Below the pieces are notes generated by a model. The model was given only the letters and a program-made list of their open reading frames with translations. It did no database searches and was not told where the DNA came from. This document shows, one piece after another, positions 5,213 through 52,067 of a DNA stretch of 64,000 nt (the stretch's first letter is position 1; every line of letters starts with the position of its first letter). Made by a program: the position numbers and the translations under genes. Source of the DNA: an uncultured Acidobacteriota bacterium (GTDB taxonomy: Bacteria > Acidobacteriota > Thermoanaerobaculia > Multivoradales > UBA5704); NCBI GenBank assembly GCA_963755825.1, contig CAVWLA010000003.1, positions 1,472,940 to 1,536,939 on the forward strand. The letters are read 5' to 3'.

Positions 5213-7468
5213 GTGCTAACTTCCCCGCCCATGCCGGCCCTCCGGCGGTTCGCAGCCGCCGTCGCACTCTCCCTCCTCGCCTGCTCGTCGGCGAGTGGGC
5301 CGCCGCGCGCGCGGGTGTGGGACCTCGTCGCCCTCCTGCCGCTCGCCGAGACGGAGAGCGAGGTGGCGACGATCGACGTCGGCTCGCCGGCGGCGCGCGA
5401 GCACCTGGCGAGCGGCTGGTACAGCAACCAGAAGGGGACCGACGGCTCGACCTCGGTGTGGAGCCGCGGCGAGATCTCGGTTCTCGAGTTCTTCCTCGCC
5501 GCGCCGCGCGATCTGCGGGTGGAGATCCGCTGCGCGCCGCTCTCGCCGAGCGCGCCCGAGGCCGGCGGCGCCGGCGACGGCGGGCCGCAGGTCGTGCGCA
5601 CCGCGGTCAACGGCCGCTGGCGCAAGGACCTGATCCTCGCGCCCGGCATGCACGCCTACGCGGTCGACCTGCCGCGGGCCGACCTCCACGCCGGCATCAA
5701 CCGCCTGATCTTCAGCTATCGCTACGTCTCCGAGCCGCGGCGCGAGAACGGCCACCGCCGCCTCGCCGTCGAGTGGGACGCGCTGCGCTTTCTGCCCGCC
5801 GGCGCCGCCGGCGCCGAGCCGGCGGGCGAGCCGGGCGCCCTCTTCCTCCCCTTCGGCAGCGAGGTCTCCTACTTCCTCGATCTGCCGGGCGCCGCCGAGC
5901 TGGCGCTCGACCGCATCGAGACCCGCGGCGCCGCCGCCGGACGGCTGGACGTCGCGGCCGAGGTCGAGGGCGGGCCGCCGATGGCGCGCACGCTCGCCGC
6001 CGGCTCGTCGGCGCACGCGCTCGAGCTGCCGGGGCGCCGGGCGCACCTCCTCCACCTCGTCCTCCGCGCCGTCGGCTCGCCGGCGGACGCCGCCGGCGGC
6101 CTGCTGCTCGCGGCGCCGACCGTCCGCGCGACGGCGTCGCCGGCGCGCCTGGCGCGGCCGGCGGCGCGCGACGGCAACGCCGCCGCTCCGCAGCTCGCGG
6201 CGCCGAGGCCCGGCGCGCCGCCGCCGAACATCGTCGTCTACCTGGTCGACACCCTGCGCGCCGACCGCCTCGGCTGCTACGGGTCGGCCAAGCCGACCTC
6301 TGCGGCCCTCGACGGCTTCGCCCGCGGCGCCGTCCTCTTCGAGCACGCCTTCGCGCAGTCGAGCTGGACGCGGCCGACGGTCACCACCCTGATGACCGGT
6401 CTCGGGCCGCTGGCGCACGGCGTCACCACGCTCGAGGACAAGCTGCCGGCGGCGGCGACGACGCTCGCCGAGCGGCTGCAGGCGGCGGGCTACCGCACGG
6501 CGGGCTTCAGCACCAACCCGCAGGTGAGCGTCGGCACCGGCCTGTCGCAGGGATTCGCCAACTTCACGCTCTTTCCCGGCGGCACGCGCTCCGCCGCCGT
6601 CAATCCGCCGGCGCTGCGCTGGCTGGACGCCGGCCGCGGTAGATCGCCCTTCTTTCTCTACATCCAGACCATCGACCCGCACGTCCCCTACGCGCCGGCT
6701 CCCGAGCTGGCCCGGCGCTTCGCGCCCGGCGTGCCGGTGGACACCGGCACCGCCCAGGGGGCGGACCGCGTCTTCCGGGCGCGCGGCGAGGAGCGCGAGC
6801 GCCTCGTCGGCCAGCTCTCCGCGCTCTACGATGCCGAGGTGGCGGGCAACGTCGAGAGCTTCGGCGAGCTCGTCGCGGCGCTCCGCGCGCGCCGCCTCTT
6901 CGACTCCACGCTCATCGTCTTCGTCGCCGATCACGGCGAGGAGTTCGACGAGCACGGCGCCCTCGGCCACGGCTTCAACCTCTACGGCGAGACGCTCCAC
7001 GTGCCGCTCGTCGTCAAGTGGCCGGGCGAGACGCGCGGCGCGCGCGTGCGGCGCCTGGTGCAGCAGATCGACCTGGTGCCGACGATCCTCCGCGCCGCCG
7101 GCATCGCGGTGCCGCCGGGCCTGCCGGGGAGCGACCTGCGGTCGCTCGCCGCGGCGAGCCCGGCGAGCGACCGGCCCGTCCTCTCCCATCTGAGCTACGG
7201 CGGCCGCGAGGGGGTCAGCCTGATCGACGGCGGCTGGAAGGTGATCGTGCCGCTCACCCCGATGTTCGGCGGCGGCGCCGAGCTCTATCGCCTCGACGAC
7301 GACGCCGCCGAGCGCGTCGACCGCAGCGAGCGCGACCCGGTGCGAGCCGGCTACCTGCGGGCGCGCGTTCGCCGCGAGCTCCTCCTCGCCCATCCGAAGC
7401 CGGCCGCCGAGCGGACGCCGATCGACGGCGAGACGCGGAAGGCGCTGGCGGCGCTCGGCTATCTTTGA
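5213..7468 (+). CDS. Alkaline-phosphatase-superfamily (sulfatase-like) lipoprotein
   Basis: Signal peptide with an LLACSS lipobox. Sulfatase-domain blocks: NIVVYLVDTLRADRLGCYG, SSWTRPTVTTLMTG, LIVFVADHGEEF, HVPLVVKWPG. C-terminus ends ...LAALGYL. The motif SSWTR replaces the canonical C/S-x-P-x-R. Confidence 0.75.
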   Translation: MLTSPPMPALRRFAAAVALSLLACSSASGPPRARVWDLVALLPLAETESEVATIDVGSPAAREHLASGWYSNQKGTDGSTSVWSRGEISVLEFFLAAPRDLRVEIRCAPLSPSAPEAGGAGDGGPQVVRTAVNGRWRKDLILAPGMHAYAVDLPRADLHAGINRLIFSYRYVSEPRRENGHRRLAVEWDALRFLPAGAAGAEPAGEPGALFLPFGSEVSYFLDLPGAAELALDRIETRGAAAGRLDVAAEVEGGPPMARTLAAGSSAHALELPGRRAHLLHLVLRAVGSPADAAGGLLLAAPTVRATASPARLARPAARDGNAAAPQLAAPRPGAPPPNIVVYLVDTLRADRLGCYGSAKPTSAALDGFARGAVLFEHAFAQSSWTRPTVTTLMTGLGPLAHGVTTLEDKLPAAATTLAERLQAAGYRTAGFSTNPQVSVGTGLSQGFANFTLFPGGTRSAAVNPPALRWLDAGRGRSPFFLYIQTIDPHVPYAPAPELARRFAPGVPVDTGTAQGADRVFRARGEERERLVGQLSALYDAEVAGNVESFGELVAALRARRLFDSTLIVFVADHGEEFDEHGALGHGFNLYGETLHVPLVVKWPGETRGARVRRLVQQIDLVPTILRAAGIAVPPGLPGSDLRSLAAASPASDRPVLSHLSYGGREGVSLIDGGWKVIVPLTPMFGGGAELYRLDDDAAERVDRSERDPVRAGYLRARVRRELLLAHPKPAAERTPIDGETRKALAALGYL

Positions 7469-15953: not shown

Positions 15954-16958
15954 ATGCCGGCGCCCGCGCGCCGCTCCGGCTCCCAGCGCGAAGATCTCGA
16001 CGACCTCGTCGCCCGCCTGCTCTCCCGCGAGCCGCGCGCCGTGGCGCGAGCGATCTCGCTCGCCGAGGGCGGCGGGCCGGCGCAGCGCGAGCTCATCGGC
16101 CGCATCTACGAGAAGACCGGCCGGGCGCGTGTCCTCGGCATCACCGGCCCGCCCGGCGCCGGCAAATCGACGCTCGTCGACCGCCTGACCCGCCTCTACC
16201 GCGAGCGCGGCGAGACCGTCGCCGTCCTCGCCGTCGACCCCTCGTCGCCGTTCTCGGGCGGCGCCATCCTCGGCGATCGCATCCGCATGCAGGGCCACTA
16301 CACCGACCCCGGCGTCTATATCCGCTCGATGGCGACGCGCGGCAACATGGGCGGCCTGGCGCGCGCCTCGCGCGACGCCGTCGATCTCGTTGATGCGGCG
16401 GGCTTCGACCGCGTGCTGGTCGAGACGGTGGGCGTCGGCCAGGACGAGGTCGACGTCGTGCGCAGCGTCGACACCGTCGCGGTGGTGACCGTCCCCGGCC
16501 TCGGCGACGACATCCAGGCGATCAAGGCGGGCATCCTCGAGATCGCCGACGTCTTCGCCGTCAACAAGGCCGACCGCGAGGGGGCGGAGCGCTCCGTGCG
16601 CGACCTCCAGATGATGCTAGGGCTGGCCGGCGAGCACGGCGAGTGGGTGCCGCCGATCCTCAAGGTGGTGGCGAGCCGCGGCGAGGGGGTGGCCGAGCTC
16701 GCCGAGGCCGCCGACGGCCATCTCGCCTGGCTGACGGCGAGCGGCGAGCTCGCGGCGCGGCGGCGGAGCCACCTGCGCCTGCGCGTCGAGACCATCCTCA
16801 AAGAGCGGGTGGTGCGCGAGGCCGACCGCGTCCTCGGCTTCGACCGCGAGGTCGAGCGCGGCTTCCTCGCCCGCCTCGACCCCTACCGCGTCGCCGACCG
16901 CCTGTTCGAGGGCGTCGTCCGCACCGAGGCCGCCGCCGCGCGAGAAGGGGGCGCATGA
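15954..16958 (+). CDS. meaB: Methylmalonyl-CoA mutase-associated GTPase MeaB (ArgK family)
   Basis: P-loop GITGPPGAGKSTL, VETVGVGQ and NKAD motifs. Its start abuts the stop of the ACAD gene. Confidence 0.9.
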   Translation: MPAPARRSGSQREDLDDLVARLLSREPRAVARAISLAEGGGPAQRELIGRIYEKTGRARVLGITGPPGAGKSTLVDRLTRLYRERGETVAVLAVDPSSPFSGGAILGDRIRMQGHYTDPGVYIRSMATRGNMGGLARASRDAVDLVDAAGFDRVLVETVGVGQDEVDVVRSVDTVAVVTVPGLGDDIQAIKAGILEIADVFAVNKADREGAERSVRDLQMMLGLAGEHGEWVPPILKVVASRGEGVAELAEAADGHLAWLTASGELAARRRSHLRLRVETILKERVVREADRVLGFDREVERGFLARLDPYRVADRLFEGVVRTEAAAAREGGA

Positions 16959-17389
16959 TCCGCGGCATCGACCACGTCGGCATCGCCGTGCGCTCGATTG
17001 CCGAGGGGCGCAAGCTCTACGAGGCGATGGGGCTCCACGTCGAGGCGATCGAGGAGGTGCCGGCGGAGAAGGTCCGCGTCGCCCTCATCCCCTGCGGCGA
17101 GTCTCGCATCGAGCTCCTCGAGCCCACCGCCGCCGACTCGCCCATCGCCAAGTTCCTCGACAAGCGAGGGCCGGGCATCCATCACCTCTGCCTGGCGAGC
17201 GACGGCGTCGCCGGCGACGACCGGCGCCTCCGCGGCGAGGGGTTCGAGGTGCTCCGCCCCGAGCCGACCCGCGGCGCCGGAGGCTGCTGGGTGCAGTTCG
17301 TCCACCCGCGCTCGACCGGCGGAGTGCTCCTCGAGCTCGCCGAGCCGGGCGAGGACGAGCACCTTCCGGAACCGGAGCCCCAGGCATGA
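16955..17389 (+). CDS. mce: Methylmalonyl-CoA epimerase (glyoxalase/VOC family)
   Basis: MIRGIDHVGIAV...GPGIHHLCL VOC fold. ATGA overlap with the meaB stop. Confidence 0.85.
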   Translation: MIRGIDHVGIAVRSIAEGRKLYEAMGLHVEAIEEVPAEKVRVALIPCGESRIELLEPTAADSPIAKFLDKRGPGIHHLCLASDGVAGDDRRLRGEGFEVLRPEPTRGAGGCWVQFVHPRSTGGVLLELAEPGEDEHLPEPEPQA

Positions 17390-17736
17390 TCCGCGCCGGC
17401 GCGCTCGTCATCGTCCATCTGAGCAATCCGACCGAGAAGTACTGGGGTCTGCTCCAGGACCTCGGAGTGGCGGGGGTGACGGTCCGCGGCATCAGCCTGG
17501 CGAGCTTCGACGACTGGATGCGCCAGGCGACCCGGCCGGGTGACCAGTCGCTCGGCCTGTCGACCATGTTCGTGCCGCTCTTCCGCGTCGAGCGCGTCTT
17601 CCTCGACGAGCCGGTGGGAGAGGTCGAGAGCTACCGCCAGCGCTTCGAGCACCGCGTCGGCGCCCCCGTCGAGCGCTTCCTGGGCCTCGACGACCTTGCC
17701 GGCCCGCGCGACGACGACACGCAGGTGCCTTCCTAG
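17386..17736 (+). CDS. Hypothetical protein (116 aa), last gene of the meaB-mce unit
   Basis: ATGA overlap with the mce stop; high GC3. Confidence 0.55.
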   Translation: MIRAGALVIVHLSNPTEKYWGLLQDLGVAGVTVRGISLASFDDWMRQATRPGDQSLGLSTMFVPLFRVERVFLDEPVGEVESYRQRFEHRVGAPVERFLGLDDLAGPRDDDTQVPS

Positions 17737-17793
17737 TCAGGTCCTCCCCGTCGCCACCACCTCACCGGCCGACACTCAAGGACCAGCACAGCA

Positions 17794-18116
17794 CAGCCAG
17801 GAATAGGTACCTGGCACCTTTCTGGCAGCTCGTACCTCGCCAGTGAGCGGTCTCTCTCGCTAGCAGACAGCCAGGAGTGGGTACCTGGCACCTTCCTTTC
17901 CCTCGGGCTCGACCGCCGGCCCGCCGAGAGATCGTTGTTGCCGATGCCGCGATGAACCCTCGTCACGCAGAGCGAGAGTGTATTGCCTCCTATTTGCCAT
18001 AAGCCTCTCCACTCAATACCCAGTGATAAGTACCTGGCACCTTTTGATCCGCGTTTAGCCGTCGGTTGGTCGGACCATTTCGCCAGCTGGAGGACAGACA
18101 TAGGTACCTGGCACCT
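17794..18116 (+). repeat. Four direct copies of a 16-18-nt repeat, (A)TAGGTACCTGGCACCT(T), at ~17803, ~17877, ~18026 and ~18099, arranged as two pairs with 73-74-bp spacing. Copies 1 and 2 share a longer 27-nt repeat, CAGCCAGGA(A/G)T(A/G)GGTACCTGGCACCTT
   Basis: Read directly from the sequence. The core AGGTACCT is an 8-bp palindrome. The surrounding ~390 bp are clearly GC-poorer than the rest of the window and non-coding. Confidence 0.8.
17812..17827 (+). promoter_or_regulatory. Sigma-54-like -24/-12 element, TGGCACctttcTGGCA, inside repeat copy 1
   Basis: Matches TGGCAC-N5-TTGCW with GG and GC exactly 10 nt apart and one mismatch (TGGCA instead of TTGCA). The other three copies lack the -12 GC. 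Confidence 0.35.
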
Positions 18117-18134
18117 CGTGTTAGCCTCGCGGGC

Positions 18135-18842
18135 GTGATCGTAGTCGACCTCGGCGCCGAGCTCCTCTTCGTCACCCAGCCCGACCACGCGCACCTGAGT
18201 GGCGACATTCTGGGGCTCTGGCGGGCCGACGGCCTACCCGACAATCCGCGGCGGGCCGAGGTCCTCTTCGCCGGCCGCGAGCACGACAACGGCTGGCGCG
18301 AGGCCGACGCGGCGCCGCGCTGGGACGCCGCCGCCGGCCATCCGCACACCTTCGTCTCGATGCCCACCGCCGAGCGCATCGCCATCTGGGAGCGCGCCAC
18401 CGCCCGCTTCGCCGCCAGCCACCCCTACGCCACGCTGCTCATCGCGCAGCACGCCCGCGCTCTCCACCGCGACCGCGTTGGTGACGAGGCCTGGGGCGAT
18501 TTCCATGATTACCTCGACGAGCTCGAGCGCGGCCTTCTCGAGGCGACCGGCGCCGCTCCCGAGGACGTCGCCGCCGACTACCGCTTCCTCGACCTCGCCG
18601 ACCTCATCTCGCTCTCGGCCCTGAACCGCGCCCCCGAGCGCTTCGCCCGCCACGGCTCGAGCGGCCGCCGGGAGGGCGACGCCGTCCACCTCGACCCCTT
18701 CCCCCTCGCCGGCTCGACCGCCTTCTCCGTCCCCTGTCGCCGCATCCCCAACCGCCCCTATGCCGGCGACGCCGACCTCGGCGGCGAGCTCGCGGCGGCG
18801 CGCTGGCAGAGCGTCCGCGTGCGCCTCGCCCCCGAGCCCTGA
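18135..18842 (+). CDS. Hypothetical protein (~235 aa; start uncertain, GTG at 18135 within ORF 18066..18842)
   Basis: High GC3 from about 18135 onward (IVVDLGAELLFVTQPDHAHLSGD...); no family confidently recognised. Confidence 0.5.
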   Translation: MIVVDLGAELLFVTQPDHAHLSGDILGLWRADGLPDNPRRAEVLFAGREHDNGWREADAAPRWDAAAGHPHTFVSMPTAERIAIWERATARFAASHPYATLLIAQHARALHRDRVGDEAWGDFHDYLDELERGLLEATGAAPEDVAADYRFLDLADLISLSALNRAPERFARHGSSGRREGDAVHLDPFPLAGSTAFSVPCRRIPNRPYAGDADLGGELAAARWQSVRVRLAPEP

Positions 18843-18911
18843 GGAGCGCGCCAGGGCACCCGCCGATCGGCTATCGTCCGAGCCGGAGCGCGGAGGCGCG
18901 AGGAGGCGGCG

Positions 18912-19244
18912 ATGATCGGCAGGACCTGGCATGGCTGGACGACGTTCGAGAACGCGGACGCCTACGAGGCTCTGCTCCGCACCGAGATTCTCCCCGGCAT
19001 CCATCGGGTGGCCGGCTTCCGCGGCGCCTACCTCTTGCGCCGCGAGGACGGCGATGAGATGGAGTTCGTCACCCTCACCCTCTTCGATTCGCTGCAGGCG
19101 ATCGAGGAGTTCGCCGGCGAGGACTGCGAGGCGGCGGTGGTGCCGCCGGCGGCACGGCATCTGCTGTCGCGCTTCGATTCGCGCGCCATCCACTTCGAGG
19201 TGCGGCTGACCGCCACCGACCTGGCGCGCCCGGCGGCTTTCTAG
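18912..19244 (+). CDS. Antibiotic-biosynthesis-monooxygenase (ABM/Dabb)-like small protein
   Basis: gaggagg SD; ~110 aa with an ABM-like ferredoxin-fold pattern (EFVTLTLFDSLQAIEEF). Confidence 0.55.
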   Translation: MIGRTWHGWTTFENADAYEALLRTEILPGIHRVAGFRGAYLLRREDGDEMEFVTLTLFDSLQAIEEFAGEDCEAAVVPPAARHLLSRFDSRAIHFEVRLTATDLARPAAF

Positions 19245-19732
19245 GAGGCGCCCTCGGGCCGCGGCGAGAACGGCGGCTTGGCAACCTCCGCCGCCCGCCC
19301 GTCCTCACCGGCGAAGACGACCTGCTCGAAGACGCGCCGGTAGAGGAGCAGGAGGTCGGCGAAGACACGGGAGAAGGCCTGGTCGGTCGACTCCGAGAGC
19401 AGCGGGTGGATCTTGAACAGCGGGGGCAGCGGCGACGGCTCGCCCGCGGCGCCCTCCATCCGGGGCGCACCGCTGGGCAGCGCGTCGGTGCGGGCAAGCT
19501 CCGCGGCGCGTTCGTCGACCAGGTAGAGGGTGTAGAAGAACTCGAAGTGGCCCACGCCGAGGGCGTTCAGGACCTTCTCCAGCGAGTCGAGCTTGGGCAG
19601 CTCCTTGCCGTTCTCGTATTTCGACAGCTGGCTCTTGCCGATCCCCGCCTCGCGCGCCACCCGCGCCTGGCTCTTACCCCGCAGCTCGCGCAGCAGGCCG
19701 AGCGTCCTGCCCAGATTGGCGAACATGTCCAC
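19241..19732 (-). CDS. XRE-family HTH transcriptional regulator
   Basis: N-terminal HTH_XRE (LRELRGKSQARVAREAGIGKSQLSKYENGKELPKLDSLEKVLNAL). Its stop overlaps the ABM gene stop in a convergent CTAG; divergent from ogt. Confidence 0.75.
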   Translation of the reverse strand: MDMFANLGRTLGLLRELRGKSQARVAREAGIGKSQLSKYENGKELPKLDSLEKVLNALGVGHFEFFYTLYLVDERAAELARTDALPSGAPRMEGAAGEPSPLPPLFKIHPLLSESTDQAFSRVFADLLLLYRRVFEQVVFAGEDGRAAEVAKPPFSPRPEGAS

Positions 19733-20027
19733 AAGCGAAATGTACCGGGTGGCGCGGACTCAGGCAAGCTGTAAGTCTTTCTCTACATGATACTTACGCC
19801 GGACCAAGAAATACCCAGAAAGGGCTATTTCATGCTCTTTTATGGAAACGATCATCCATATCTGTTTCTGTATCGGCTTGAAGGTGCCGATCTCAATCAC
19901 GCATCGCGCCGCGATTGGTGTCTCCGCCGGCGAACCTCGCGGAGGTGACGTGCTGAGCGTTCCGGCGGGGCGCGACGGACAGGTTTCCCGGTCTCCTTCC
20001 GCGAGGCGTCGTGTTACCCTCAGGGGC

Positions 20028-20579
20028 ATGCCCGATGCCCAGGAAGACGGCGGCGCCGCCGCCCAGGAGGGCCAGGCCGAGCCGTTGCGCGTGCTTGTTC
20101 CCTCACCCCTGGGACCGCTCGGGATCGAGCTGACGGGGGCGGCGATCAGCCGCCTGCTGATCGATCCCGGCCGCGAGGCCAAGGCTGCCTTCACCCCCTT
20201 CCATAAGTTGAGGGGATCGGACCTGCTGGACGAGCTCTTCGGCCGCCTCTCCGAGTACTTCGCCGGCGCGCGGCGACGGCTGGAGATCGAGTTCGACCTC
20301 GCCGCGAGCGGCCTCGACGGCTTCGCCAAGCGCGTGCTCAAGGAGACGGCGAAGACCCCCTACGGCAAGACGCGGACCTACCGCAGCCTGGCCGACGCCG
20401 CCGGGCGTCCGGACTCCTACCGCCAGGTGCTCTCGATCCTGCTCGAGAACCCCATCCCGATCCTCATCCCCTGCCACCGCGTGGTGACCAGCCGGTCGGG
20501 GATCGGCAGCTACATCGGCGGCGGCGACCGCAAGAAGTGGCTCCTCGACCTCGAGGCCCAGGGTGGCGAGCCGCTCTGA
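20028..20579 (+). CDS. ogt: Methylated-DNA--protein-cysteine methyltransferase
   Basis: Active-site IPCHRVV motif and C-terminal DNA-binding domain. Internal ATG at 20028; the upstream ORF portion is AT-richer and non-coding. Confidence 0.85.
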   Translation: MPDAQEDGGAAAQEGQAEPLRVLVPSPLGPLGIELTGAAISRLLIDPGREAKAAFTPFHKLRGSDLLDELFGRLSEYFAGARRRLEIEFDLAASGLDGFAKRVLKETAKTPYGKTRTYRSLADAAGRPDSYRQVLSILLENPIPILIPCHRVVTSRSGIGSYIGGGDRKKWLLDLEAQGGEPL

Positions 20580-29196: not shown

Positions 29197-31170
29197 CTAC
29201 GTGGGCTTGAAGGCGACGCGCATCACGGTCCACATCTTGACCCGCACGCCGTCCTTGGTCGCCGGCCGGTAGGACGAGTGGCGGGCGGCCTCCATCGCCG
29301 CCTCGTCGAAGCCGAAGCCGACCTTGGCGCCCACCGGCTGTGTCTGCACGACGCGGCCGAGCTCGTCGACGAGGACGCGGATCTGCACGTCCGCCGACTT
29401 GTTCATGTGCCGCGCCGCCGAGGGGTAGCGGGGCTCGGGCATGCCGGCCATCTTCGGCGCCACGACGCCGGGGCCGGGCTGCACCAGGTCGCCGAGCTGG
29501 ACCTTGGGCGGCGCCGGCTCGGCGTCCGCCGCCGGCGGCGGGGTCGCCGCGGCGACGCTCGGCGCCGAGGTAGCCGGGCTCGCGGCGGCGGCGGTCGACT
29601 TGGCGCCGGCGGGGGCCGGCACCGCGGCACCGGCCGCCGGCGCCGGAGATGGCGACGGCACCGCCGGCGGCGGGGCGGACTCCGGCACCACCGGCGGCGC
29701 CTCGGCGCGGGCGACGCGCGTCTCGGCGGCGGCTGGCGAGGCGCCCGCCGCATGCGTCGAGGAGGTCTCCTTCTTGCTGTCCTGGAGCTGCTTCTGGAGG
29801 GCCTTGATCCGCTCGTCGTACTGGTCCTTGAGCTTCGCCTCCATCTCCTTGCTGCGGGCGTCGAACATGGCGGTGATCTGGGCCTGGATCTCCTCCGGCT
29901 TCGGCGCCGCCGGCGCCGCGGCGCCCAGCGCCGGCAGCGGGGCGGCAACCGGCTGCGCGGCGGCCGCCGGGGCCGGCGGCGGCGCCGGCTTGCGGCCGAA
30001 GAGGAACCAGCCGCCGCCGCCGAGGACAGCGATGGCGAGCGCTGCGGCGATGGCGATCCACACCCCCTTGCCGCCGCCCGCCGCCGGCTTCGCGGCGGCG
30101 ACGCCGGGGAGCGTCGCCTCGCGCACCCCCGCCTTCTCTCGCCCGTCGGCCGCCTGGCGGCCGGCAGCGGCAGCGGCGGCAGCGGCGGCGGGCCGCGCCA
30201 CGGCGGCCGGCGCCGCCGACGGCGGCGGCGCCGAGGCGGCGTAGCGCTTCTCCGCCTGGATCTCCTCGCTCTCGCGCTCGATCTCGTCGCGGAAGAGGTT
30301 GTGCATGAAGAAGGCGAGGTTGAAGGTGGTCGGGCTGTAGTGCCCCTCGATCATCAGCTTCGAGATCGCCTTGTGCCAGGTGACGGCGTCGGCGATGCGC
30401 TCGCCGCGCGGCACCAGGCTCTTCTTGAGCAGCGCCGCGAGCGGCGCCGGCAGCGGCGTCCCCTCGTTGGCGACCACCGCGGCGTCGATCGCGGCGCCGG
30501 GGTCGCCGCCAGCCAGCCGCTCGCCGGTGAGCATCTCGAGGAGGAGGGCGCCCAACGACCAGACATCATCGGCGCGCGACAGCGGCTGGCCGGCGAGCGT
30601 CTCGGGCGAGAGATAGGGCGTGAGCTCGGCGTCGCGCCAGCCGCCGGCCGCCAGCTCGCGGAGGCCCGGCGCCAGCTCGAAGCCGAGCAGGCGCGCCTCG
30701 CCCTCGTTGGAGATCATCACCAGGTGCGGCACCACGAAGCCGTGCAGGATGCGCTCGTCCGCCACCCGGCTCTCGTAGGCGGAGGCGAGGGCGAGCGAGA
30801 TGCGCTCGGCGATCAGCATGGCATGGTCGGCGGGGATCGGCGAGCCCTGCTTCGCCGCCTGCGCGAAGAGCACAGCGAGATTCTTGCCGGAGATGTAGTC
30901 GTAGGCGGCGTAGGCGTAGTTGCGCACCCGCCCGAGGTCGACGCCGCCGCCGATGTTGGGGCTCTTCAACGCCTGCTGCACGGCGGCGCGGCCGGAGACT
31001 TTGGCCCACAGCTTGTCGCCGTCCATCCCCTTGCCGTTCAGCACCCTGAGCAGGACGACCTGCTCCATCCCCCCGTCGCCCACCTTGCCGGCGCGGAAAG
31101 TCTCGCCGAGAGCATCCTCGGTCAGCTTCTTGAGCAATAGGTAACTGCCGAACTCCTCGGGGATGTTCAT
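29197..31170 (-). CDS. Degenerate Ser/Thr-kinase-like (pseudokinase) domain - TM segment - Pro/Ala-rich linker - TonB C-terminal domain fusion protein (657 aa)
   Basis: N-terminal kinase-like fold (YLLLKKL..., APE-like LSPETLAGQP, DVWSLGALLLEMLTG) but without a Gly-loop, VAIK Lys, HRD or DFG. Hydrophobic TM segment (VWIAIAAALAIAVLGGGGWFLF), then a long A/P-rich region. C-terminal TonB-C signature: PEPRYPSAARHMNKSADVQIRVLVDELGRVV...YRPATKDGVRVKMWTVMRVAFKP. ATG at 31170 with an aggag SD. Confidence 0.7.
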   Translation of the reverse strand: MNIPEEFGSYLLLKKLTEDALGETFRAGKVGDGGMEQVVLLRVLNGKGMDGDKLWAKVSGRAAVQQALKSPNIGGGVDLGRVRNYAYAAYDYISGKNLAVLFAQAAKQGSPIPADHAMLIAERISLALASAYESRVADERILHGFVVPHLVMISNEGEARLLGFELAPGLRELAAGGWRDAELTPYLSPETLAGQPLSRADDVWSLGALLLEMLTGERLAGGDPGAAIDAAVVANEGTPLPAPLAALLKKSLVPRGERIADAVTWHKAISKLMIEGHYSPTTFNLAFFMHNLFRDEIERESEEIQAEKRYAASAPPPSAAPAAVARPAAAAAAAAAGRQAADGREKAGVREATLPGVAAAKPAAGGGKGVWIAIAAALAIAVLGGGGWFLFGRKPAPPPAPAAAAQPVAAPLPALGAAAPAAPKPEEIQAQITAMFDARSKEMEAKLKDQYDERIKALQKQLQDSKKETSSTHAAGASPAAAETRVARAEAPPVVPESAPPPAVPSPSPAPAAGAAVPAPAGAKSTAAAASPATSAPSVAAATPPPAADAEPAPPKVQLGDLVQPGPGVVAPKMAGMPEPRYPSAARHMNKSADVQIRVLVDELGRVVQTQPVGAKVGFGFDEAAMEAARHSSYRPATKDGVRVKMWTVMRVAFKPT

Positions 31171-43085: not shown

Positions 43086-44600
43086 TCACTCAGGTGAGAA
43101 TTCGATTGTAACGGAATAGAAGGAATTGACCGGCGCGCCGCCCTGGATCGCCGGCTGAAAGCGGAAGCCGCAGAGCGCGTCGAGGGCCGCGGCGTCGAGG
43201 TTGGGCGAGGCGCCGGGGGAGCGCACCTCGGGCTGGCGGAGGCCTCCCGCGGCGTCGACGACGCCGGAGACGACGACGGCGTCGAGCAGCCGCTGCGCCT
43301 TGAGGAAGCGCGGGTAGGCCGGCCGCGCGTGCTCGACCACCCGCGGGCGGAGCGGCGGCGCGGCGGCCCGGCCCTCGCGCTCACGGCGCCGATCGCCGCC
43401 GCCGTGGACCACCCAGCGCTCGCTCCCCCAGCGGTTGCGGTCGAGGAGCGCCCCCGCGGCGCCGTAGGGTCCGAGATCGGCGTCGTAGAGCGCCGGCGAG
43501 AGGACCTCGGCCGCCTGCCAGCGGCAGATAGCGGCGGGAGCGGCGCCCACGCTGGCCGGCGCCAGGATGGCTTCGGCGAGAGCGCGGAGAGCGAGGGCGG
43601 CGCCGAGGAGGGCGGGGCTGCGCTCGGCGCCGTCGAGCGCCTCCTGCCAGCGCCGCGCCGCGAGCCGACCGGCCTCGGCGAGGCGGCCGGCGCGGAGGAG
43701 CGCCTCGACGGCGCCGAGATCGACCTTCGCGCTGCCGCCGGCGCCGGCGGTAGCCAGCAGGCCGGCGAGCGGCAGGCCGGCCGGCGGATCGACGGTGAGC
43801 TCGGCGAGGACGGCGACCGGAGCGCCGCCGGCGGTCGCCGGCGCGAACCGGAAGCCGCGCAGGCTCTCCAGGGCGCGCACGGCGGCGGCGCCGGTGCGGC
43901 CGGCGACGACCACCGGCTCGCGCACCCGGCCAGCCGCATCGACGGCGAGCTCGATGCGCAGGCTCGGCGGAACTCCCTGGTGGCCCTGGCGCAGGAGCGC
44001 CGGGGCGGGGAGCTCGCCGGCCAGCCGGCGCGGCGGGCTGGCGCCCTCGGCGGCGTGGATCGCCACCCCGTCGGGCGCCGCGCCGGGTCGCCGCAGCGGG
44101 TGCGCCGCGAGGAGGGCGCCGGCGGCGCCGAAGCCGCCGAGCTCCGCGCCGGTGAGCACGCCCGGCGTCAGGTTCTCGGCCTCGTGCCAGTGCCAGAGGG
44201 CGTCCTCGGCGCTCCCCGATCCGGCCTCGGCGAGGGCGAGGCGAGAGAGCGAGTCCGCGAGGTCGAGCGCCGGCGCGCCGCTGGCGCCCAGCCCGAGGGC
44301 GAGCTCGGCGCGCGCGGCGGCCGCCGCCTTGGCGAAGCGGCCGGCGCGCAGGTCGCCGTCGAGCGTCGCCAGCCGGCGGGCGGGCTCCTCGATCCACGGC
44401 AGGCGCTCGGTGTCGTCGGCCCCAGCCGCCGGAGGCGCCGGCTGAGCAGCCGGCGCGGCGGATGTTGGGGCTGGCGGGGGCAAGGGAAGCGACGCCGGAG
44501 CCATGGGCGGCGCCGGAGGTGCCGCGAGGAGACCGCCGCCGACTCCAGCGAATACCGCGAGAAGAACGGCGAGGAGCGGCAGGAGGCGGCGGTTCGGCAT
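43086..44600 (-). CDS. Secreted Ala-rich protein with two C-terminal TonB-C-like domains, paralog 2 (504 aa)
   Basis: Signal peptide (MPNRRLLPLLAVLLAVFAG) and an Ala/Pro-rich region. TonB-C signatures: PAYPRFLKAQRLLDAVVVSGVVDAAGGLRQPEVRSPGASPNLDAAALDALCGFRFQPAIQGGAPVNSFYSVTIEF plus an upstream degenerate copy. Confidence 0.7.
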   Translation of the reverse strand: MPNRRLLPLLAVLLAVFAGVGGGLLAAPPAPPMAPASLPLPPPAPTSAAPAAQPAPPAAGADDTERLPWIEEPARRLATLDGDLRAGRFAKAAAAARAELALGLGASGAPALDLADSLSRLALAEAGSGSAEDALWHWHEAENLTPGVLTGAELGGFGAAGALLAAHPLRRPGAAPDGVAIHAAEGASPPRRLAGELPAPALLRQGHQGVPPSLRIELAVDAAGRVREPVVVAGRTGAAAVRALESLRGFRFAPATAGGAPVAVLAELTVDPPAGLPLAGLLATAGAGGSAKVDLGAVEALLRAGRLAEAGRLAARRWQEALDGAERSPALLGAALALRALAEAILAPASVGAAPAAICRWQAAEVLSPALYDADLGPYGAAGALLDRNRWGSERWVVHGGGDRRREREGRAAAPPLRPRVVEHARPAYPRFLKAQRLLDAVVVSGVVDAAGGLRQPEVRSPGASPNLDAAALDALCGFRFQPAIQGGAPVNSFYSVTIEFSPE

Positions 44601-46917: not shown

Positions 46918-48372
46918 TCAAGGGCTGTGCGTGGCCTGCTTGAAGGCGGCCAGGAGGCGGCGCGCTAGCGCGGCGGTGAGACGCTCTTCGCCGGCCGCCT
47001 GGCGGAAGAGGGTCAAGGCCGCGAGGCGCTCGCGCTCCACCCTCTGCGCGGCGAAGATCGGAGCGGACTCGGCCGCGAGCGCCTTGACCTCCGCCGTCTT
47101 CCCCTCGCCGGCCAAGAGCGCGGCGAGCTCGAGCGTCGCGAGCGCCGCGTCGTAGGCGATCCTGCGCTCGACGAGCTCGTCGCGCACTTCGCGCAGGGCG
47201 GCTGCCGCCTCGTCCGGCCGGCCGCTCGCGGCGGCGATCCGCCCTTCCAGCCAGCGGAGGCGCGTGCGGTGGAGCCCCTTGCCCGAGCGCTCGGCCAGCC
47301 CGCGCACCTCGGCGACCAGCGGCTCCGCCTCGGCGTGGCGGCCCACCGCGTCGAGGTTTTCCGCCAGGTTGAACCGCAGGGCGAACCAGACCCTCTCGTC
47401 GGCAGGGTCGGCGAGGGGGATCGCCCGCTCGAGCGTGGCGATCGCCGTCTCGTAGTCGCCGACCTCCTCCAGCGTCTTCGCCTTCTTGACCAGAATTCTC
47501 GCGACGGCGTTGGGAGGACAGATGGCGAGGGCCTGATCGAGCAGGGCGAGAGCTTCCGGGACCCGCCGCTCACCCCGGCACAAGGAAGCTTCGAGGTCGA
47601 GCCGGCGCGAGGCGTCGAGCAGGCCGTGCTCGTCGTCCGCTCCGAGGGGCCAAGCGGCCCGCGAGCGGGCGAAGGCCTCCTTCGCCGCCGGCAGCTCGCC
47701 GCTCGCCCGGAGGGCGTTGCCGTGGAACGCCTCGCAATGGCCCTGCAGCTCCGAACGCCATCGCTCGCCGCCAGGTGCGAAGCGGGCGATCTCCACGGCG
47801 AGCCGGGCGAGCGCGATGGCCGGACGCGGATCGTGCGCCGCCGCCGCCTCGCTCTCGCCGCAGAGGAGCACGGCGAGGGCCCAGCTCCGGAACCGCTCGC
47901 CCGCCCGCACCAGACCGAGGCGCTCCTCCTGCGAGAAGGGCTCGAGGAGCTGGCGGAGGCCCGGGGCCGCCAGCCGGTCCGCCGCGCTGGGAGCGGGCGG
48001 CGCGGGCTCCGCACGGGCGAGGAGGAGCGCCGCGCGCGTGAAGCCTTCCGCCGCGCGGCCGGCGCCGGCGGCGAGGGCGTCGGCCTCCGCGCCCGGCGGC
48101 CCGCCGGCGCGGAGCGTCCCGCCGGCGCCGATGACCTGCCGGACGACGTGGAGGCAGGCGAGGAGAGGATCGAGGAGAGGCAGCGGGAAGCGCAGGGCGG
48201 CCATCAGGCGGTCGAGGCTGCGGCCGGACGGCGCCACCTTGCCGGTCTCGTACTCGCAGAGCGAGCTGGCCGCGACGCCTGCCCTCTCGGCCAGCTCGGC
48301 CTGCGTCTCGCGGTGAAACCAGCGGAGCAGGCCGAGCGCCGCGCCCAGATCTACGGGGTCTCTCGCCGTCAT
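46918..48372 (-). CDS. XRE-HTH + TPR-repeat transcriptional regulator, paralog A (484 aa)
   Basis: ATG at 48372. HTH_XRE LRWFHRETQAELAERAGVAASSLCEYETGKVAPSGRSLDRLMAAL followed by ~400 aa of TPR-like helices. Colinear with paralog B: shared blocks ILVKKAKTLEE.GDYE.A.ATLERA, FALRFNLAENL, RLRWLEGRIAAA and ALREVRDEL. Confidence 0.75.
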   Translation of the reverse strand: MTARDPVDLGAALGLLRWFHRETQAELAERAGVAASSLCEYETGKVAPSGRSLDRLMAALRFPLPLLDPLLACLHVVRQVIGAGGTLRAGGPPGAEADALAAGAGRAAEGFTRAALLLARAEPAPPAPSAADRLAAPGLRQLLEPFSQEERLGLVRAGERFRSWALAVLLCGESEAAAAHDPRPAIALARLAVEIARFAPGGERWRSELQGHCEAFHGNALRASGELPAAKEAFARSRAAWPLGADDEHGLLDASRRLDLEASLCRGERRVPEALALLDQALAICPPNAVARILVKKAKTLEEVGDYETAIATLERAIPLADPADERVWFALRFNLAENLDAVGRHAEAEPLVAEVRGLAERSGKGLHRTRLRWLEGRIAAASGRPDEAAAALREVRDELVERRIAYDAALATLELAALLAGEGKTAEVKALAAESAPIFAAQRVERERLAALTLFRQAAGEERLTAALARRLLAAFKQATHSP

Positions 48373-48567
48373 CGCCCTCCCATGGGACTCACCGATTCGC
48401 CGTGCCCGCGAAGCGCCGGAGCGATCCCTCCTCGCGCAAAGCCTAACTCTCTTCGGCCTTGGGCCGAACATTTCGGGGTTACCCTGGCGCACCATTGCCG
48501 GAAAGGGAGCGTGCCCGGGCGGCCATGGAGGCCGCCGGGCGGCGCCTCCCCCGAAAGGAGCAAATCC

Positions 48568-48876
48568 ATGTCCCATTCCATCCGCCGCAGGATCGCCACC
48601 CTCGCCCTCGGCGCGCTGCTCGCCGCCCCGTGGGCCGCACAGGCCGGGGAGCGGCGCCCGGCCGCGCCGCGAGGCGCGCGAGCGGCAGCTCAGGTGCCCG
48701 CCGGTCCCCTCGGTCGCCTCTGGGGTTCCCTCCAGGCGCTCTGGAGTGAGGAGGGGTGCACGATCGATCCGAGCGGTGCCCGCTGCGCCAGCCACGCGCA
48801 GGGCGCCGGCACGCCCATCAGCCCGGCTCCCGCGGGATGCACGATCGACCCCAACGGCGCCGCCTGCTCGCGGTAG
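48568..48876 (+). CDS. Small secreted peptide precursor (102 aa) with two CTIDP(S/N)GA(R/A)C repeats
   Basis: aaaggag SD 7 nt upstream of the ATG. Sec signal peptide MSHSIRRRIATLALGALLAAPWAAQA|GE. The predicted mature ~76-aa part contains two Cys-bracketed 10-residue loops (GCTIDPSGARC, GCTIDPNGAAC). Lies between the two HTH-TPR regulators. Confidence 0.6.
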   Translation: MSHSIRRRIATLALGALLAAPWAAQAGERRPAAPRGARAAAQVPAGPLGRLWGSLQALWSEEGCTIDPSGARCASHAQGAGTPISPAPAGCTIDPNGAACSR

Positions 48877-48937: not shown

Positions 48938-50425
48938 TCAGGCGGCTTCGAAGCGGAGCTGCGGCTGGTGGCGCGCGCGGTAGAGGTAGCGGACCACGTC
49001 CCGCGCGATCTCGGGCGTCGCCGACTCGCGCTCCGCGGCGCGGCGGAAGAAGGCGAGCGCCTTCCGCGCCTCGGCGTGGACCTCCTGGCGCTCGAAGACG
49101 GCGGCCATCTGCCGCGCCAGCGTGCGGACGACGTCCATCCGCCCCTGGACCGCGTACTGCTCCGCCAGCTCGAGCGAGACGAGGGCCATGTCGTAGGCCA
49201 TCCCCCGCGTGGCGAGCTCGCCGCGGACCTTGCCGAGGGCGGCGATCGCCTCCCCGGTCCGCCCGAGGCCCGCGGCGATCCGCCCGTCGAGCCACAGCAG
49301 GCGCACGCGGTAGAGGTCGCCGCGCAGCCGGAGCGCCAGCGTCCGCACCTCGGCGACCATCGGCTCGGCCTCGGCGTGGCCGCCGACGTGCAGGAGGTTC
49401 TCGGAGAGATTGAAGCGGAGGGCGAAGCGCAGGTGAGGGTCGCCCGCCGCCTCGACCAGCGGCTTCGCCTCCCGCAGGGTCGCCACGGCGGCCGCGTAGT
49501 CGGCCGTCTCCTCGAGCGTCTTCGCCCGCTTGATGAGGATGCGCGCCGAGGAAGCGGCGCCCGGGGAGACGGCGAGCGCGCGCTCGAGCAGGGCGAGGGC
49601 CTCGGGGAATCGCCGCTGGGCTCGGCGCAGAGAGGCCTCGAGGTCGAGGACGCGGGAGGGGTCGAAGGGGCTCGGCCCGGCAGGCTCCTCGCTCCAGAGC
49701 GCCCGCGCGCGGCGGAAGGCCTCGTCGGCGGCGGGCAGGCTCTTGCCCTGCACCCGCCGGGCGTTGGCGACGAACGCCCAGGCGTGGCCCTGGGCGCGGA
49801 GCCCCTCGTCGCCCTCGACGCCGCGGGCGATCCACAGCGCCAGGTCCGCCAGCTCGGCGGCCTGGGAGGGCTCGTGGGCCGCCGCCCTCTCGCTCTCCTC
49901 GCAGATCAGGGCGCAGAGCGCGGCGGTCTTCCGCTCGGGGATGCAGTCGAGGAGCGGCCGCCGGCGCGCCGCAGGATGGGCGGCGAGCATCTCCCAGACC
50001 TCGCGGGCCACGCCCTTCGCCTCCTCCACCTCGGCACGGGCGGCGTGGACGGTCGCCGCCGCGCGCAGGAAGGTGGAGCTGGCGCGCGCGCCGTCCGCCG
50101 CCAGCCGCTCGATCGCCTGGCGCGCCGCCGCGCGCGCGTCCCGCGGGGCGCGGCGGGCGGCGATCTCGGCGCGCCCCTCGCGCAGCAGATCGAGCACGCG
50201 GTCGACGATGGAGTCCGGCAGGTTCATCGCCGCGGCGAAACGGCCGAGCGCCTCGCGCGTCGGCACGCTCTTGCCGCGCTCGAGCTCCGAGATCCAGCCG
50301 GGCGTCAGGCCGGTCAACGTGGCCAGCTCCTGCGCGCTGCGCAGACCGGCGACGCGCCGCAGGATGACGAGCGCCTCGCCTTCCACGGGCGGGCCCTCGG
50401 TCATCTCCTCTTCATCCTCTCTCAT
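48938..50425 (-). CDS. XRE-HTH + TPR-repeat transcriptional regulator, paralog B (495 aa)
   Basis: ATG at 50425. HTH_XRE LRSAQELATLTGLTPGWISELERGKSVPTREALGRFAAAMNL and a TPR-like body colinear with paralog A. Confidence 0.75.
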   Translation of the reverse strand: MREDEEEMTEGPPVEGEALVILRRVAGLRSAQELATLTGLTPGWISELERGKSVPTREALGRFAAAMNLPDSIVDRVLDLLREGRAEIAARRAPRDARAAARQAIERLAADGARASSTFLRAAATVHAARAEVEEAKGVAREVWEMLAAHPAARRRPLLDCIPERKTAALCALICEESERAAAHEPSQAAELADLALWIARGVEGDEGLRAQGHAWAFVANARRVQGKSLPAADEAFRRARALWSEEPAGPSPFDPSRVLDLEASLRRAQRRFPEALALLERALAVSPGAASSARILIKRAKTLEETADYAAAVATLREAKPLVEAAGDPHLRFALRFNLSENLLHVGGHAEAEPMVAEVRTLALRLRGDLYRVRLLWLDGRIAAGLGRTGEAIAALGKVRGELATRGMAYDMALVSLELAEQYAVQGRMDVVRTLARQMAAVFERQEVHAEARKALAFFRRAAERESATPEIARDVVRYLYRARHQPQLRFEAA

Positions 50426-50636
50426 GCGCTGGTCCTGAAACAAAGGATATCCGCCGCGGCAGCGGCGTGACAGTTGAAGCGCGTCGGAAACCCGGAAAAG
50501 CGGGGCGGATCGCCGAACGGCGCTTTTTTTCGCAGCAACCGCTTGGTTGCGGCGGCGCAGGCCCGTACCGTCCTCCTCGCGCCGGCCGTGCTCGATGGCT
50601 GCCCTCATGGCGGCCTCGCCGGCGGGGAGCCTGCGG

Positions 50637-52067
50637 ATGGGAGAAACGACGAATGCCGTGCTCGATCAGCTTCGATCCCTGGCCGCCGTCCTGGCCTGCG
50701 TCCGCGGCCGCCTGATCGAGCTGTCAGCGGCCCTGCCGGAGGAGGAGCCGGCGGCCGAGGGACCGGAAGGCGCGGAGGTCGAGCCGGGCCTGCGGTCGGT
50801 CCTCTCCTGCGTGCTCACCGACTCGATCGAACCGGCGATTCGCGACCTGCTCCTGGCCGCCGAGCACGAGCCGGCGCAGCCGCCAGCGGCGACTCCCGCC
50901 GCACGGACCCGTGAGGCCGATGAGCCCGGCTACCGGGCTCTCTTCGCGCGGCTCGCGACCAGCCTGCCCCGCTCTGCCGCTGCCGCCGAGCGCACCCGCC
51001 GCGAGACGGACCGCCTCTACCGCGATCTCGTCGCGTCGACGAGAACCGACCGGCTGGAGGCGACGGGAGAGCTCCGCTTCCATCGGCTCGACCTCGTGGA
51101 GCGCCTTCTCGAAGACGCTCGAGGCGCGCTGCCTTCCGACCCAGGCTCGGCCGAGGAGCTGGCGAGCCTCGCCGCGGCGATCGCCGGCCGGCTCGCCGAT
51201 GCCGACGAGAGCTCGGAGGGCAGAGCGCGGGCGGCCTGCTGGATCGCGCACGCTCGCCGCATCGCCGGCGATCTCGCTGGCGCCGAGAGGGCCCTCTCCG
51301 GAGCGACGCTCTACGCCGCGGGATATTCCGACGAGCAGGCCGAGCTCTGCCGCGCGGTCGCCCTCCTGCGCTGGGAGCAGGGGCGGATGGAGGAGGCGAG
51401 AGCGATGCTCGAACGCGCCGAGGAGCTCTGGGCTGGCGAGGAAGCGCCTCACGAGCAGGGAGCCTGCCAGGTGCTCGCGGCGCTGCTCTCGATCGAAGAG
51501 GGCAGAGCGCGGGATGCGGTGAGACCGCTGCGCGATGCGCTGCCGCTCCTCATCGATCCCTGGCTCACCGTCTACGGCCGCCTCGCGCTGGCGCTCGGCT
51601 TGGCCGAGAAGGGACAGGCGAAGAGAGCGCGGGAGCAGCGCGGCGAGAGCGGGCGGTCGGCGCCGCTCGCGCCACCGGCGGCGCACCTCTTCGCGCTCCA
51701 TCTCGAGGCGAGGATCGCCTTGAGCCTGGGCGAGCACGCCGCGGCGAGCGCGATGCTCGAAGACCTGCGCCGCGAGGCGATCGAGCGGCGGTGGCTGCCA
51801 GAGGCCGCGCTCGCGACGCTCAACCTCGCCCGCCTGGACATCGAACGCGGGTCGGAGCCGGAGGCGGCGGCGGAGCGCCTGGCCGAGCTGGAAGCGATCT
51901 TCACGGGATCTGAGCCGCTGGACGGCCTCGTCGCGGCCTTGCGGGAATTCCCGCAGCAGATCGCCGCCGGCGAGAGCCTCGCGGAGTTCACCCCGTCTCT
52001 TGCGGCGACCATGCTGCGGCTGCTGCGGCTGCGTGGCGTTCGCGGCGGGGCGCTCCCGTTCGCCTGA
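50637..52067 (+). CDS. TPR-like helical protein without HTH, paralog C (~476 aa; start uncertain, ATG at 50637 after a gggag SD)
   Basis: All-helical; resembles the TPR bodies of A and B (LERAEELW, RLALALGLAEKGQ, LEARIALSLGEHAAA) but has no DNA-binding domain. Divergent from regulator B. Confidence 0.55.
   Translation: MGETTNAVLDQLRSLAAVLACVRGRLIELSAALPEEEPAAEGPEGAEVEPGLRSVLSCVLTDSIEPAIRDLLLAAEHEPAQPPAATPAARTREADEPGYRALFARLATSLPRSAAAAERTRRETDRLYRDLVASTRTDRLEATGELRFHRLDLVERLLEDARGALPSDPGSAEELASLAAAIAGRLADADESSEGRARAACWIAHARRIAGDLAGAERALSGATLYAAGYSDEQAELCRAVALLRWEQGRMEEARAMLERAEELWAGEEAPHEQGACQVLAALLSIEEGRARDAVRPLRDALPLLIDPWLTVYGRLALALGLAEKGQAKRAREQRGESGRSAPLAPPAAHLFALHLEARIALSLGEHAAASAMLEDLRREAIERRWLPEAALATLNLARLDIERGSEPEAAAERLAELEAIFTGSEPLDGLVAALREFPQQIAAGESLAEFTPSLAATMLRLLRLRGVRGGALPFA

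Follow-up and report, generated by a model that had tools for sequence, protein, structure and literature searches.

We analysed a 64,000-nt stretch of DNA (the window) from an uncultured soil bacterium of the Acidobacteriota (class Thermoanaerobaculia; contig CAVWLA010000003.1), in which a non-coding island upstream of a gene for a DUF3891 protein carries four direct copies of a short motif. The island is bounded by the TAG stop codon (17734-17736) of a hypothetical gene encoding 116 amino acids (aa) and by the GTG start codon (18135) of the DUF3891 gene. Its GC content is well below the 0.726 of the whole window. A preliminary description of this DNA had noted a low-GC island following a meaB-mce operon; the low GC content stands, but the last gene of that operon is the 116-aa gene, whose start overlaps the preceding stop codon, and not mce. 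The features needed for what follows are:

17386-17736, plus strand: 116-aa hypothetical gene at the end of the acyl-CoA dehydrogenase-meaB-mce operon (from the list of open reading frames and synteny)
17737-18134: non-coding island of 398 bp, GC content 0.606, restricted to a small clade
17803-17819, plus strand: motif copy 1 (O1), ATAGGTACCTGGCACCT; the 27-nt block around it is invariant in the related locus L166
17877-17893, plus strand: motif copy 2 (O2), GTGGGTACCTGGCACCT, 74 bp after copy 1
18026-18042, plus strand: motif copy 3 (O3), ATAAGTACCTGGCACCT, 149 bp after copy 2
18100-18116, plus strand: motif copy 4 (O4), ATAGGTACCTGGCACCT, 74 bp after copy 3, with its core at 18103-18116
18119-18127, plus strand: predicted extended -10 element TGtTAGCCT, 7 nt before the GTG at 18135, conserved in L166
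18135-18842, plus strand: DUF3891 gene, 235 aa, GTG start (Pfam PF13030, E = 3.5e-38)

The copies share a 14-nt core, GGTACCTGGCACCT, that starts at 17806, 17880, 18029 and 18103, giving start-to-start distances of 74, 149 and 74 bp; copy 3 differs from the core by a single mismatch (it reads AGTACC...). The four direct copies that had been described in the island were thus confirmed and all of their coordinates located exactly, the only adjustment being that copy 4 begins at 18100, one base from the earlier estimate of ∼ 18099. Copies 1 and 2 do belong to a longer shared repeat, as had been proposed; its measured length is 31 nt (90% identity) rather than 27 nt. Searched at ≤ 2 mismatches, the 14-mer has four matches in the 64-kb window, all of them in the island, against 0.18 ± 0.44 expected from dinucleotide-preserving shuffles, none of which (0 of 100) reached four. 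An isolated motif-like match at 30372 and pairs of TGGCAC at 44184 and 45830 lie inside long open reading frames (ORFs) or high-GC sequence and were set aside as chance.

Two side observations concern short sequence strings. GTAC is rare in the window (69 observed versus 158 expected from base composition), as is GGTACC, the KpnI site (6 versus 21), and three of the six GGTACC sites are inside the island; CCWGG shows no depletion (288 versus 304). In addition, the 116-aa gene ends in codons for Q-V-P-S that read AGGTGCC at 17723-17729 in the window, and AGGTACC in the related loci L001 and L002 (∼ 6333-6339), which is a motif half-site in inverted orientation. This is probably a coincidence, since the codons are kept for the protein in genomes that have no island.

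Conservation of the motif among related loci

The island is present (filled sites) at four loci: the window, L166, L001 (on the same contig as L006) and L002. In L166 the 116-aa protein is 96% identical to that of the window and the four copies recur at distances of 74, 151 and 74 bp. L001 and L002 are more distant (116-aa proteins 83–84% identical), and their 227-bp island contains two good copies 21 bp apart, with a third, degenerate copy 77 bp upstream in L001. MAFFT aligned copy 3 of the window to the penultimate copy of L001 and L002, with which it has the flank CTGCAT in common. When the window is compared with L166, the four 14-nt cores are identical at 55 of 56 positions, whereas the rest of the island is 65–67% identical in a gap-poor alignment, below the 70–86% identity of third codon positions in the flanking genes. 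Hardly anything is recognizably shared between these two loci and L001/L002 except the motif copies and the -10 box. Core identity far above the background, together with the retention of the motif in L001 and L002, argues that the motif has been maintained by selection and is not merely young.

Seven close relatives have empty sites (L007, L168/169, L170, L172, L173 and L174; 116-aa proteins 76–84% identical to that of the window), with just 25–50 bp and no motif between the 116-aa gene and the DUF3891 gene; in most of them this short gap is essentially the -10 box alone. The motif cluster was also absent from 74 other DUF3891 loci (L007-L085 without those named above) and from 80 further loci with the 116-aa gene (∼ 946 kb). 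A 12-site profile run over ∼ 1.07 Mb, comprising the window and the related loci, recovered nothing beyond the same sites and one isolated match in L079. Judged from these sequences, the island is a gain made within one small Thermoanaerobaculia clade. In a neighbour-joining tree of the 116-aa protein, which has low resolution, the filled loci group with the empty-site locus L170, and the tree is compatible with one gain of the island and one loss.

Some individual spacers deserve description. The 27-bp spacer of L170 (positions 747-773 of that locus, CCCCGCCTCCGGCGCCAGGATCCCCGC) does not have the usual TGcTAGCCT. It contains GCCAGGA, which is similar to the sequence on the 5′ side of window copies 1 and 2, and may have arisen from an island by deletion. 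L001 (6447-6479) and L002 (6450-6482) have a conserved block of their own, CGTTTTCGTCAACA(A/C)GACGTCTCCGCTCCGCAT, which includes the palindrome CGTC-N5-GACG and has no counterpart in the window or L166. A further invariant block, loosely similar to the start of the L001/L002 island and to the spacer of L172, lies close to the left end of the window's island:

17747-17763, plus strand: 17-nt block CCCGTCGCCACCACCTC, identical in the window and L166

Position of the repeats relative to the predicted DUF3891 promoter

A scan of the region for the sigma-70 consensus gave no -35/-10 pair. We therefore located the promoter by orthologue comparison, as an extended -10 box, using 76 DUF3891 genes from GTDB species representatives. 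TAnnnT, often in the form TAAGCT, ends 4–10 nt (mostly 6 nt) before the start codon in 56 of the 76 orthologues; the chance rate of such a placement in GC-rich DNA, estimated from base frequencies, is ∼ 2%. The N-terminus of the window's DUF3891 protein (V/M-I-V-V-D) aligns with those of the orthologues. In the window, the element TGtTAGCCT contains the only plus-strand TAnnnT of the whole 460-nt region, and TGcTAGCCT (TGCTAGCGT in L172) occupies the same place in L001, L002, L168/169, L173 and L174. The box is sited so that transcription would begin at the start codon, yielding a leaderless DUF3891 mRNA, and the 7 nt between the box and the GTG contain no Shine-Dalgarno sequence. By this comparison, DUF3891 genes look leaderless across the Thermoanaerobaculia and show no Shine-Dalgarno sequence.

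A second element was seen in L010, L011, L014, L016, L017, L020, L022, L030, L031 and other loci, where GATCTTAC(T/A)A lies ∼ 20–60 nt upstream of DUF3891. It adjoins a divergent gene whose start codon (…cttcttCAT) is ∼ 10 nt away. On the minus strand the element reads TAGTAAGATC, so that this divergent neighbour may also have a leaderless promoter, with the box TAAGAT.

Copy 4 of the motif lies directly beside the conserved -10 box. It ends 2 nt before the extended -10 element predicted from the orthologous TAnnnT boxes, and if transcription starts at the start codon its core (18103-18116) would span about -32 to -19. The 34 nt from O4 to the start codon are invariant in L166. In L001 and L002 the distance from the proximal site to the -10 box is 13 nt instead of the 5 nt of the window and L166, and the proximal core would accordingly occupy -39 to -26. 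In either arrangement the predicted position is inside the footprint of RNA polymerase. The seven relatives with empty sites point to the extended -10 element alone as the ancestral promoter; the motif would thus be an added regulatory layer and not a core promoter element.

A putative operator array and its alternatives

Thirteen sites from the four loci yield the consensus nTA(R)GTACCTGGCACCT(Y), which can be written as a pseudo-palindrome, A-w-AGGTrCC-w-GGyACCT-w-T, of 15–19 bp per site. AGGTACC-T-GGCACCT, centred on T, matches its own reverse complement at 12 of 15 positions, or 14 of 19 with the flanks included. The site may equally be taken as a tandem pair of heptamers, GGYACCT GGYACCT, and the L001 variants GGCACCTGGCACCC and GGCACCTGGTAACT (GGCACCT GGCACCC and GGCACCT GGTAACT) fit the tandem reading slightly better. 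With the present sites, the palindrome and the direct repeat appear equally possible, and on either reading the size and symmetry of the site would suit a protein that binds DNA as a dimer. At 10.5 bp per helical turn, the distances of 74, 74 and 21 bp between neighbouring sites (the last in L001 and L002) amount to 7.0, 7.0 and 2.0 turns, and the 149–151 bp in the middle to 14.2–14.4 turns.

Among the explanations raised in the preliminary description, a phased array of operators fits these data best: the site is pseudo-palindromic, it is conserved above the level of the island, O4 sits on the predicted promoter and the helical spacing is near-integral. Most likely, the island is an ordinary, lineage-specific set of putative binding sites; that the four repeats are an operator array for a single sequence-specific transcription factor we put at about even chances. 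The presumed regulated target is DUF3891, whose leaderless mRNA would be driven by the extended -10 box TGtTAGCCT. A factor bound at O4 would occlude RNA polymerase at this box. O3, O2 and O1 (74, 223 and 297 bp upstream of O4) would serve as auxiliary operators, increasing the local occupancy by cooperative binding or by looping, and gain of the island would have uncoupled DUF3891 from the upstream operon and placed it under dedicated control. We tentatively suggest repression as the likeliest action of the putative factor, although we hold this with less than even confidence; the distance between O4 and the -10 box differs between the two sub-lineages, which a repressor would tolerate more easily than an activator or a sigma element.

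Several points weigh against an operator array. The start of DUF3891 transcription is a prediction made from sequence. As the 12–13 sites come from four loci in two sub-lineages, they cannot count as independent observations. In L001 the distal site lies at a distance of 77 bp (7.3 turns), and its L002 counterpart is decaying. No second locus with the motif, and hence no regulon or autoregulated regulator gene, was found in the ∼ 88 kb of DNA examined from motif-bearing genomes, nor was a cognate transcription factor found. Finally, the equal 74-bp spacings would be partly inherited, and not independently selected, if a two-site module had been duplicated. Pair (1,2) aligns to pair (3,4) with a score of 62, compared with 38.8 ± 6.5 for shuffles in which the cores were kept fixed, 2 of 300 of which reached it. 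The signal is a weak one, coming mostly from the flanks of the motif; the spacers on their own have no significant similarity to one another, nor to the promoter or gene start. A duplication of this kind is therefore possible but not established. The same comparison speaks against the idea that the 74-bp units arose from a duplicated promoter and gene start.

Regulators encoded within the window were considered as candidate binders. The neighbouring XRE-type regulator (19241-19732, minus strand) is an unlikely one, as it occurs in genomes that do not have the motif and has no motif upstream of its own gene. Among the 27 window ORFs scanned, the only further candidates for DNA binding are two neighbouring large tetratricopeptide repeat (TPR) proteins (46921-48876 and 48941-50665, minus strand), the first of which has an HTH_3 domain; no copy of the motif lies near them.

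The repeats might instead be sites for an activator (class II or MerR-like), or the motif itself might supply a -35-like element. The hexamer CTGGCA within the motif matches TTGACA at four of six positions, and it stands 16 nt before TAGCCT in L001 and L002 and before a decayed TAGCCG that follows copy 3 in the window; moreover, the centre of O4 in the window falls at about -25.5, a MerR-like position. This geometry is not conserved, however, as in the window and L166 the hexamer is just 8 nt from the -10 box, and an extended -10 promoter needs no -35 element, the relatives having the -10 box alone. We consider this alternative unlikely.

A functionless relic, left by tandem duplications or by a low-copy mobile or REP-like (repetitive extragenic palindromic) element and apparently conserved only through youth or gene conversion, is in our view distinctly improbable. 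It would account for the somewhat better than shuffled alignment of the two pairs, for the absence of the island from most relatives and for a GC content below that of coding DNA. Against it, spacer identity between the window and L166 is down to ∼ 65%, in contrast to the nearly identical cores, and the motif persists in L001 and L002 amid unalignable sequence. Neither the 64 kb nor ∼ 1 Mb of related loci contains dispersed copies; when the island was searched by blastn against the window and every locus, the matches were orthologous islands only, and viral contigs gave no motif pairs. Comparison of filled with empty sites disclosed neither terminal inverted repeats nor a target-site duplication at the ends of the island, the left part of which is homologous to the short ancestral spacer seen in L172. 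The suggestion that the repeats mark a miniature inverted-repeat transposable element (MITE) or its relic thus drew no support from the ∼ 1.07 Mb searched. Short imperfect palindromic repeats clustered in a lower-GC intergenic region do recall MITEs and REP elements or bacterial interspersed mosaic elements (BIMEs); the repeats described here differ from these in being directly oriented and confined to a single locus; the window's remaining intergenic regions and ∼ 1 Mb of related DNA have none.

Another proposal places the function in RNA. Transcripts of the island would start at the sigma-54-like site of copy 1 or come from read-through of the upstream operon, and the boxes, which hold an anti-Shine-Dalgarno-like CACCU, would titrate a protein or a complementary RNA in the manner of a sponge or form a regulatory leader of DUF3891. 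All four copies are indeed on the same strand as the flanking genes, copy 1 has GG-N10-GC with a block, GGAATAGGTACCTGGCACCTTTCTGGC, that is invariant in L166, and window copies 1 and 2 can fold a 6-bp hairpin. Yet this hairpin is absent at window copies 3 and 4 and at L166 copies 1, 3 and 4, and the predicted folding energy is no better than that of shuffled sequences (z = -0.22 for the plus strand and -1.00 for the minus strand). A cmscan search against Rfam (17000-19000, both strands, E ≤ 10) gave two chance-level matches to unrelated families. The sigma-54 match is at chance level and missing from the L001/L002 copies, no second promoter-like -10 box was found in the region, and the conserved leaderless -10 box by the start codon argues against a long leader. 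We regard a role in RNA as very unlikely, and the more specific idea that a transcribed island represents a clade-specific family of RNA sponges or decoys, born in one Thermoanaerobaculia lineage and with no counterpart in Rfam, as more doubtful still.

For the same reasons a small RNA (sRNA) of the CsrB/RsmZ type, as the preliminary description had entertained, is not borne out. The covariance-model search returned no match to CsrB, RsmY or RsmZ, and the GGA motifs on which the proposal was based, though present, are not enriched (6 observed versus 5.0 ± 2.0 expected). The island resembles these sponge RNAs in packing a short repeated motif into a few hundred non-coding bases. It differs in that covariance models do not match it, GGA is not enriched, hairpins do not recur and a promoter/terminator pair is missing, and in that its motif is a long exact 14-mer, in contrast to their short degenerate loop motif.

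The sigma-54 reading, with four such promoters or with one promoter and an array of sites for an enhancer-binding protein, is the least probable of the regulatory explanations and we think it extremely unlikely. Its basis is real: TGGCAC, the canonical -24 element, is part of each copy, and copy 1 alone has a correctly spaced -12 GC, exactly as had been reported, in the following string:

17812-17827, plus strand: sigma-54-like string TGGCACctttcTGGCA, overlapping copy 1, with 2 mismatches to TGGCACG-N4-TTGCW

GG-N10-GC is found in one of the four window copies and one of the four L166 copies (copy 1 in each) but in none of the five L001/L002 copies. Conservation also lies on the wrong side for a -24/-12 promoter, as the conserved flank (ATAGGTACC) is upstream of TGGCAC and not in the -12 region, which varies among the copies, those of L001 and L002 included. 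A scan of the window for TGGCACG-N4-TTGCW at ≤ 2 mismatches gave seven matches, compared with 5.5 ± 2.4 expected, which is chance frequency. Sites for an enhancer-binding protein would be upstream, whereas the other TGGCAC copies are downstream of copy 1, and no Sigma54_activat domain was detected among the 27 ORFs. The string at copy 1 is judged to be a chance by-product of the TGGCAC in the motif.

Two remaining candidates were rejected. A clustered regularly interspaced short palindromic repeats (CRISPR) array is contradicted by 31-nt units that are just 68–90% identical, by the missing repeat expected between copies 2 and 3, by the failure of Tandem Repeats Finder to find anything and by the absence of a cas domain from the scanned ORFs. 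A protein-coding island finds no support: the long minus-strand ORF at 17733-18194 (153 aa) is open in another frame in L166 and interrupted in the frame of the window, substitutions between the window and L166 have no clear 3-periodicity, no reading frame is conserved and the motif spacing is not a multiple of three.

Neighbouring genes, related systems and meaning

Upstream of the 116-aa gene, the plus strand encodes an acyl-CoA dehydrogenase, MeaB (15954-16958) and a glyoxalase-fold protein resembling methylmalonyl-CoA epimerase. The 116-aa protein has more than 1000 homologues, of which the named ones come almost all from metagenome-assembled genomes of Thermoanaerobaculia (Acidobacteriota); no Pfam or NCBIfam family was found for it. 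MeaB and the epimerase are separate, overlapping genes in the window, L002 and L003. In L001 (4613-6004) the two are called as a single 463-residue product, which is either a gene fusion or an artefact of gene calling or a frameshift. The DUF3891 gene is followed by an ABM-fold gene, the XRE-type helix-turn-helix regulator on the minus strand and a gene with an MGMT domain, an order that is kept in relatives. The divergent intergenic region between the XRE and MGMT (19842-20579) genes, at 19733-19841, is the most AT-rich spot nearby (GC content 0.485); it has an imperfect inverted repeat (19802-19816 and 19823-19837) and no copy of GGTACCTGGCACCT. A scan of the island for transfer RNA and transfer-messenger RNA genes found none. 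Searches of NCBIfam and, by sequence, of the Protein Data Bank gave no match for the DUF3891 protein, a literature search for DUF3891 gave nothing relevant, and a literature search with the motif string retrieved just papers that were unrelated by title (cloning and biomedical).

Repressors that use several operators include HipB, with its four TATCC-N8-GGATA operators at hipBA, and the proteins that act at lac O1/O2/O3, gal OE/OI and lambda OR/OL. The putative operator array described here is like these in having several near-identical pseudo-palindromic sites, one of them over the core promoter and the others tens to hundreds of base pairs away at near-integral helical turns. It is unlike them in that its motif matches none of theirs, that it is known from sequence alone, that a predicted leaderless promoter of the extended -10 type follows all of its sites and that the presumed target is an uncharacterised DUF3891 gene of an uncultured bacterium. 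The CtsR box, a tandem heptad direct repeat (RGTCAAA-NAN-RGTCAAA), offers a parallel for the other reading of the site, as the core can likewise be divided into two heptamers in tandem and the L001 variants fit such a pattern. Here, however, the sequence is a different one, there is no 3-nt spacer, and the context includes neither a CtsR-type regulator nor a heat-shock gene.

To our knowledge, almost nothing has been established about the cis-regulatory DNA of the Thermoanaerobaculia, a class known almost wholly from metagenomes of soil and sediment. Our findings overturn no current ideas and would not surprise a specialist. The locus is nevertheless a clean natural experiment, in which relatives with a bare, predicted leaderless promoter can be compared with relatives in which that promoter is preceded by a gained array of two to four sites, and as such it would illustrate how a gene leaves the influence of an upstream operon for dedicated control. 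The predicted leaderless arrangement of DUF3891, and apparently of a divergent neighbour, with a TAAGCT-like -10 box 6 nt from the start codon throughout the class, may aid gene calling and promoter prediction in the phylum. The motif itself would serve as bait for finding the regulator and, via the regulator, the role of the DUF3891 proteins.

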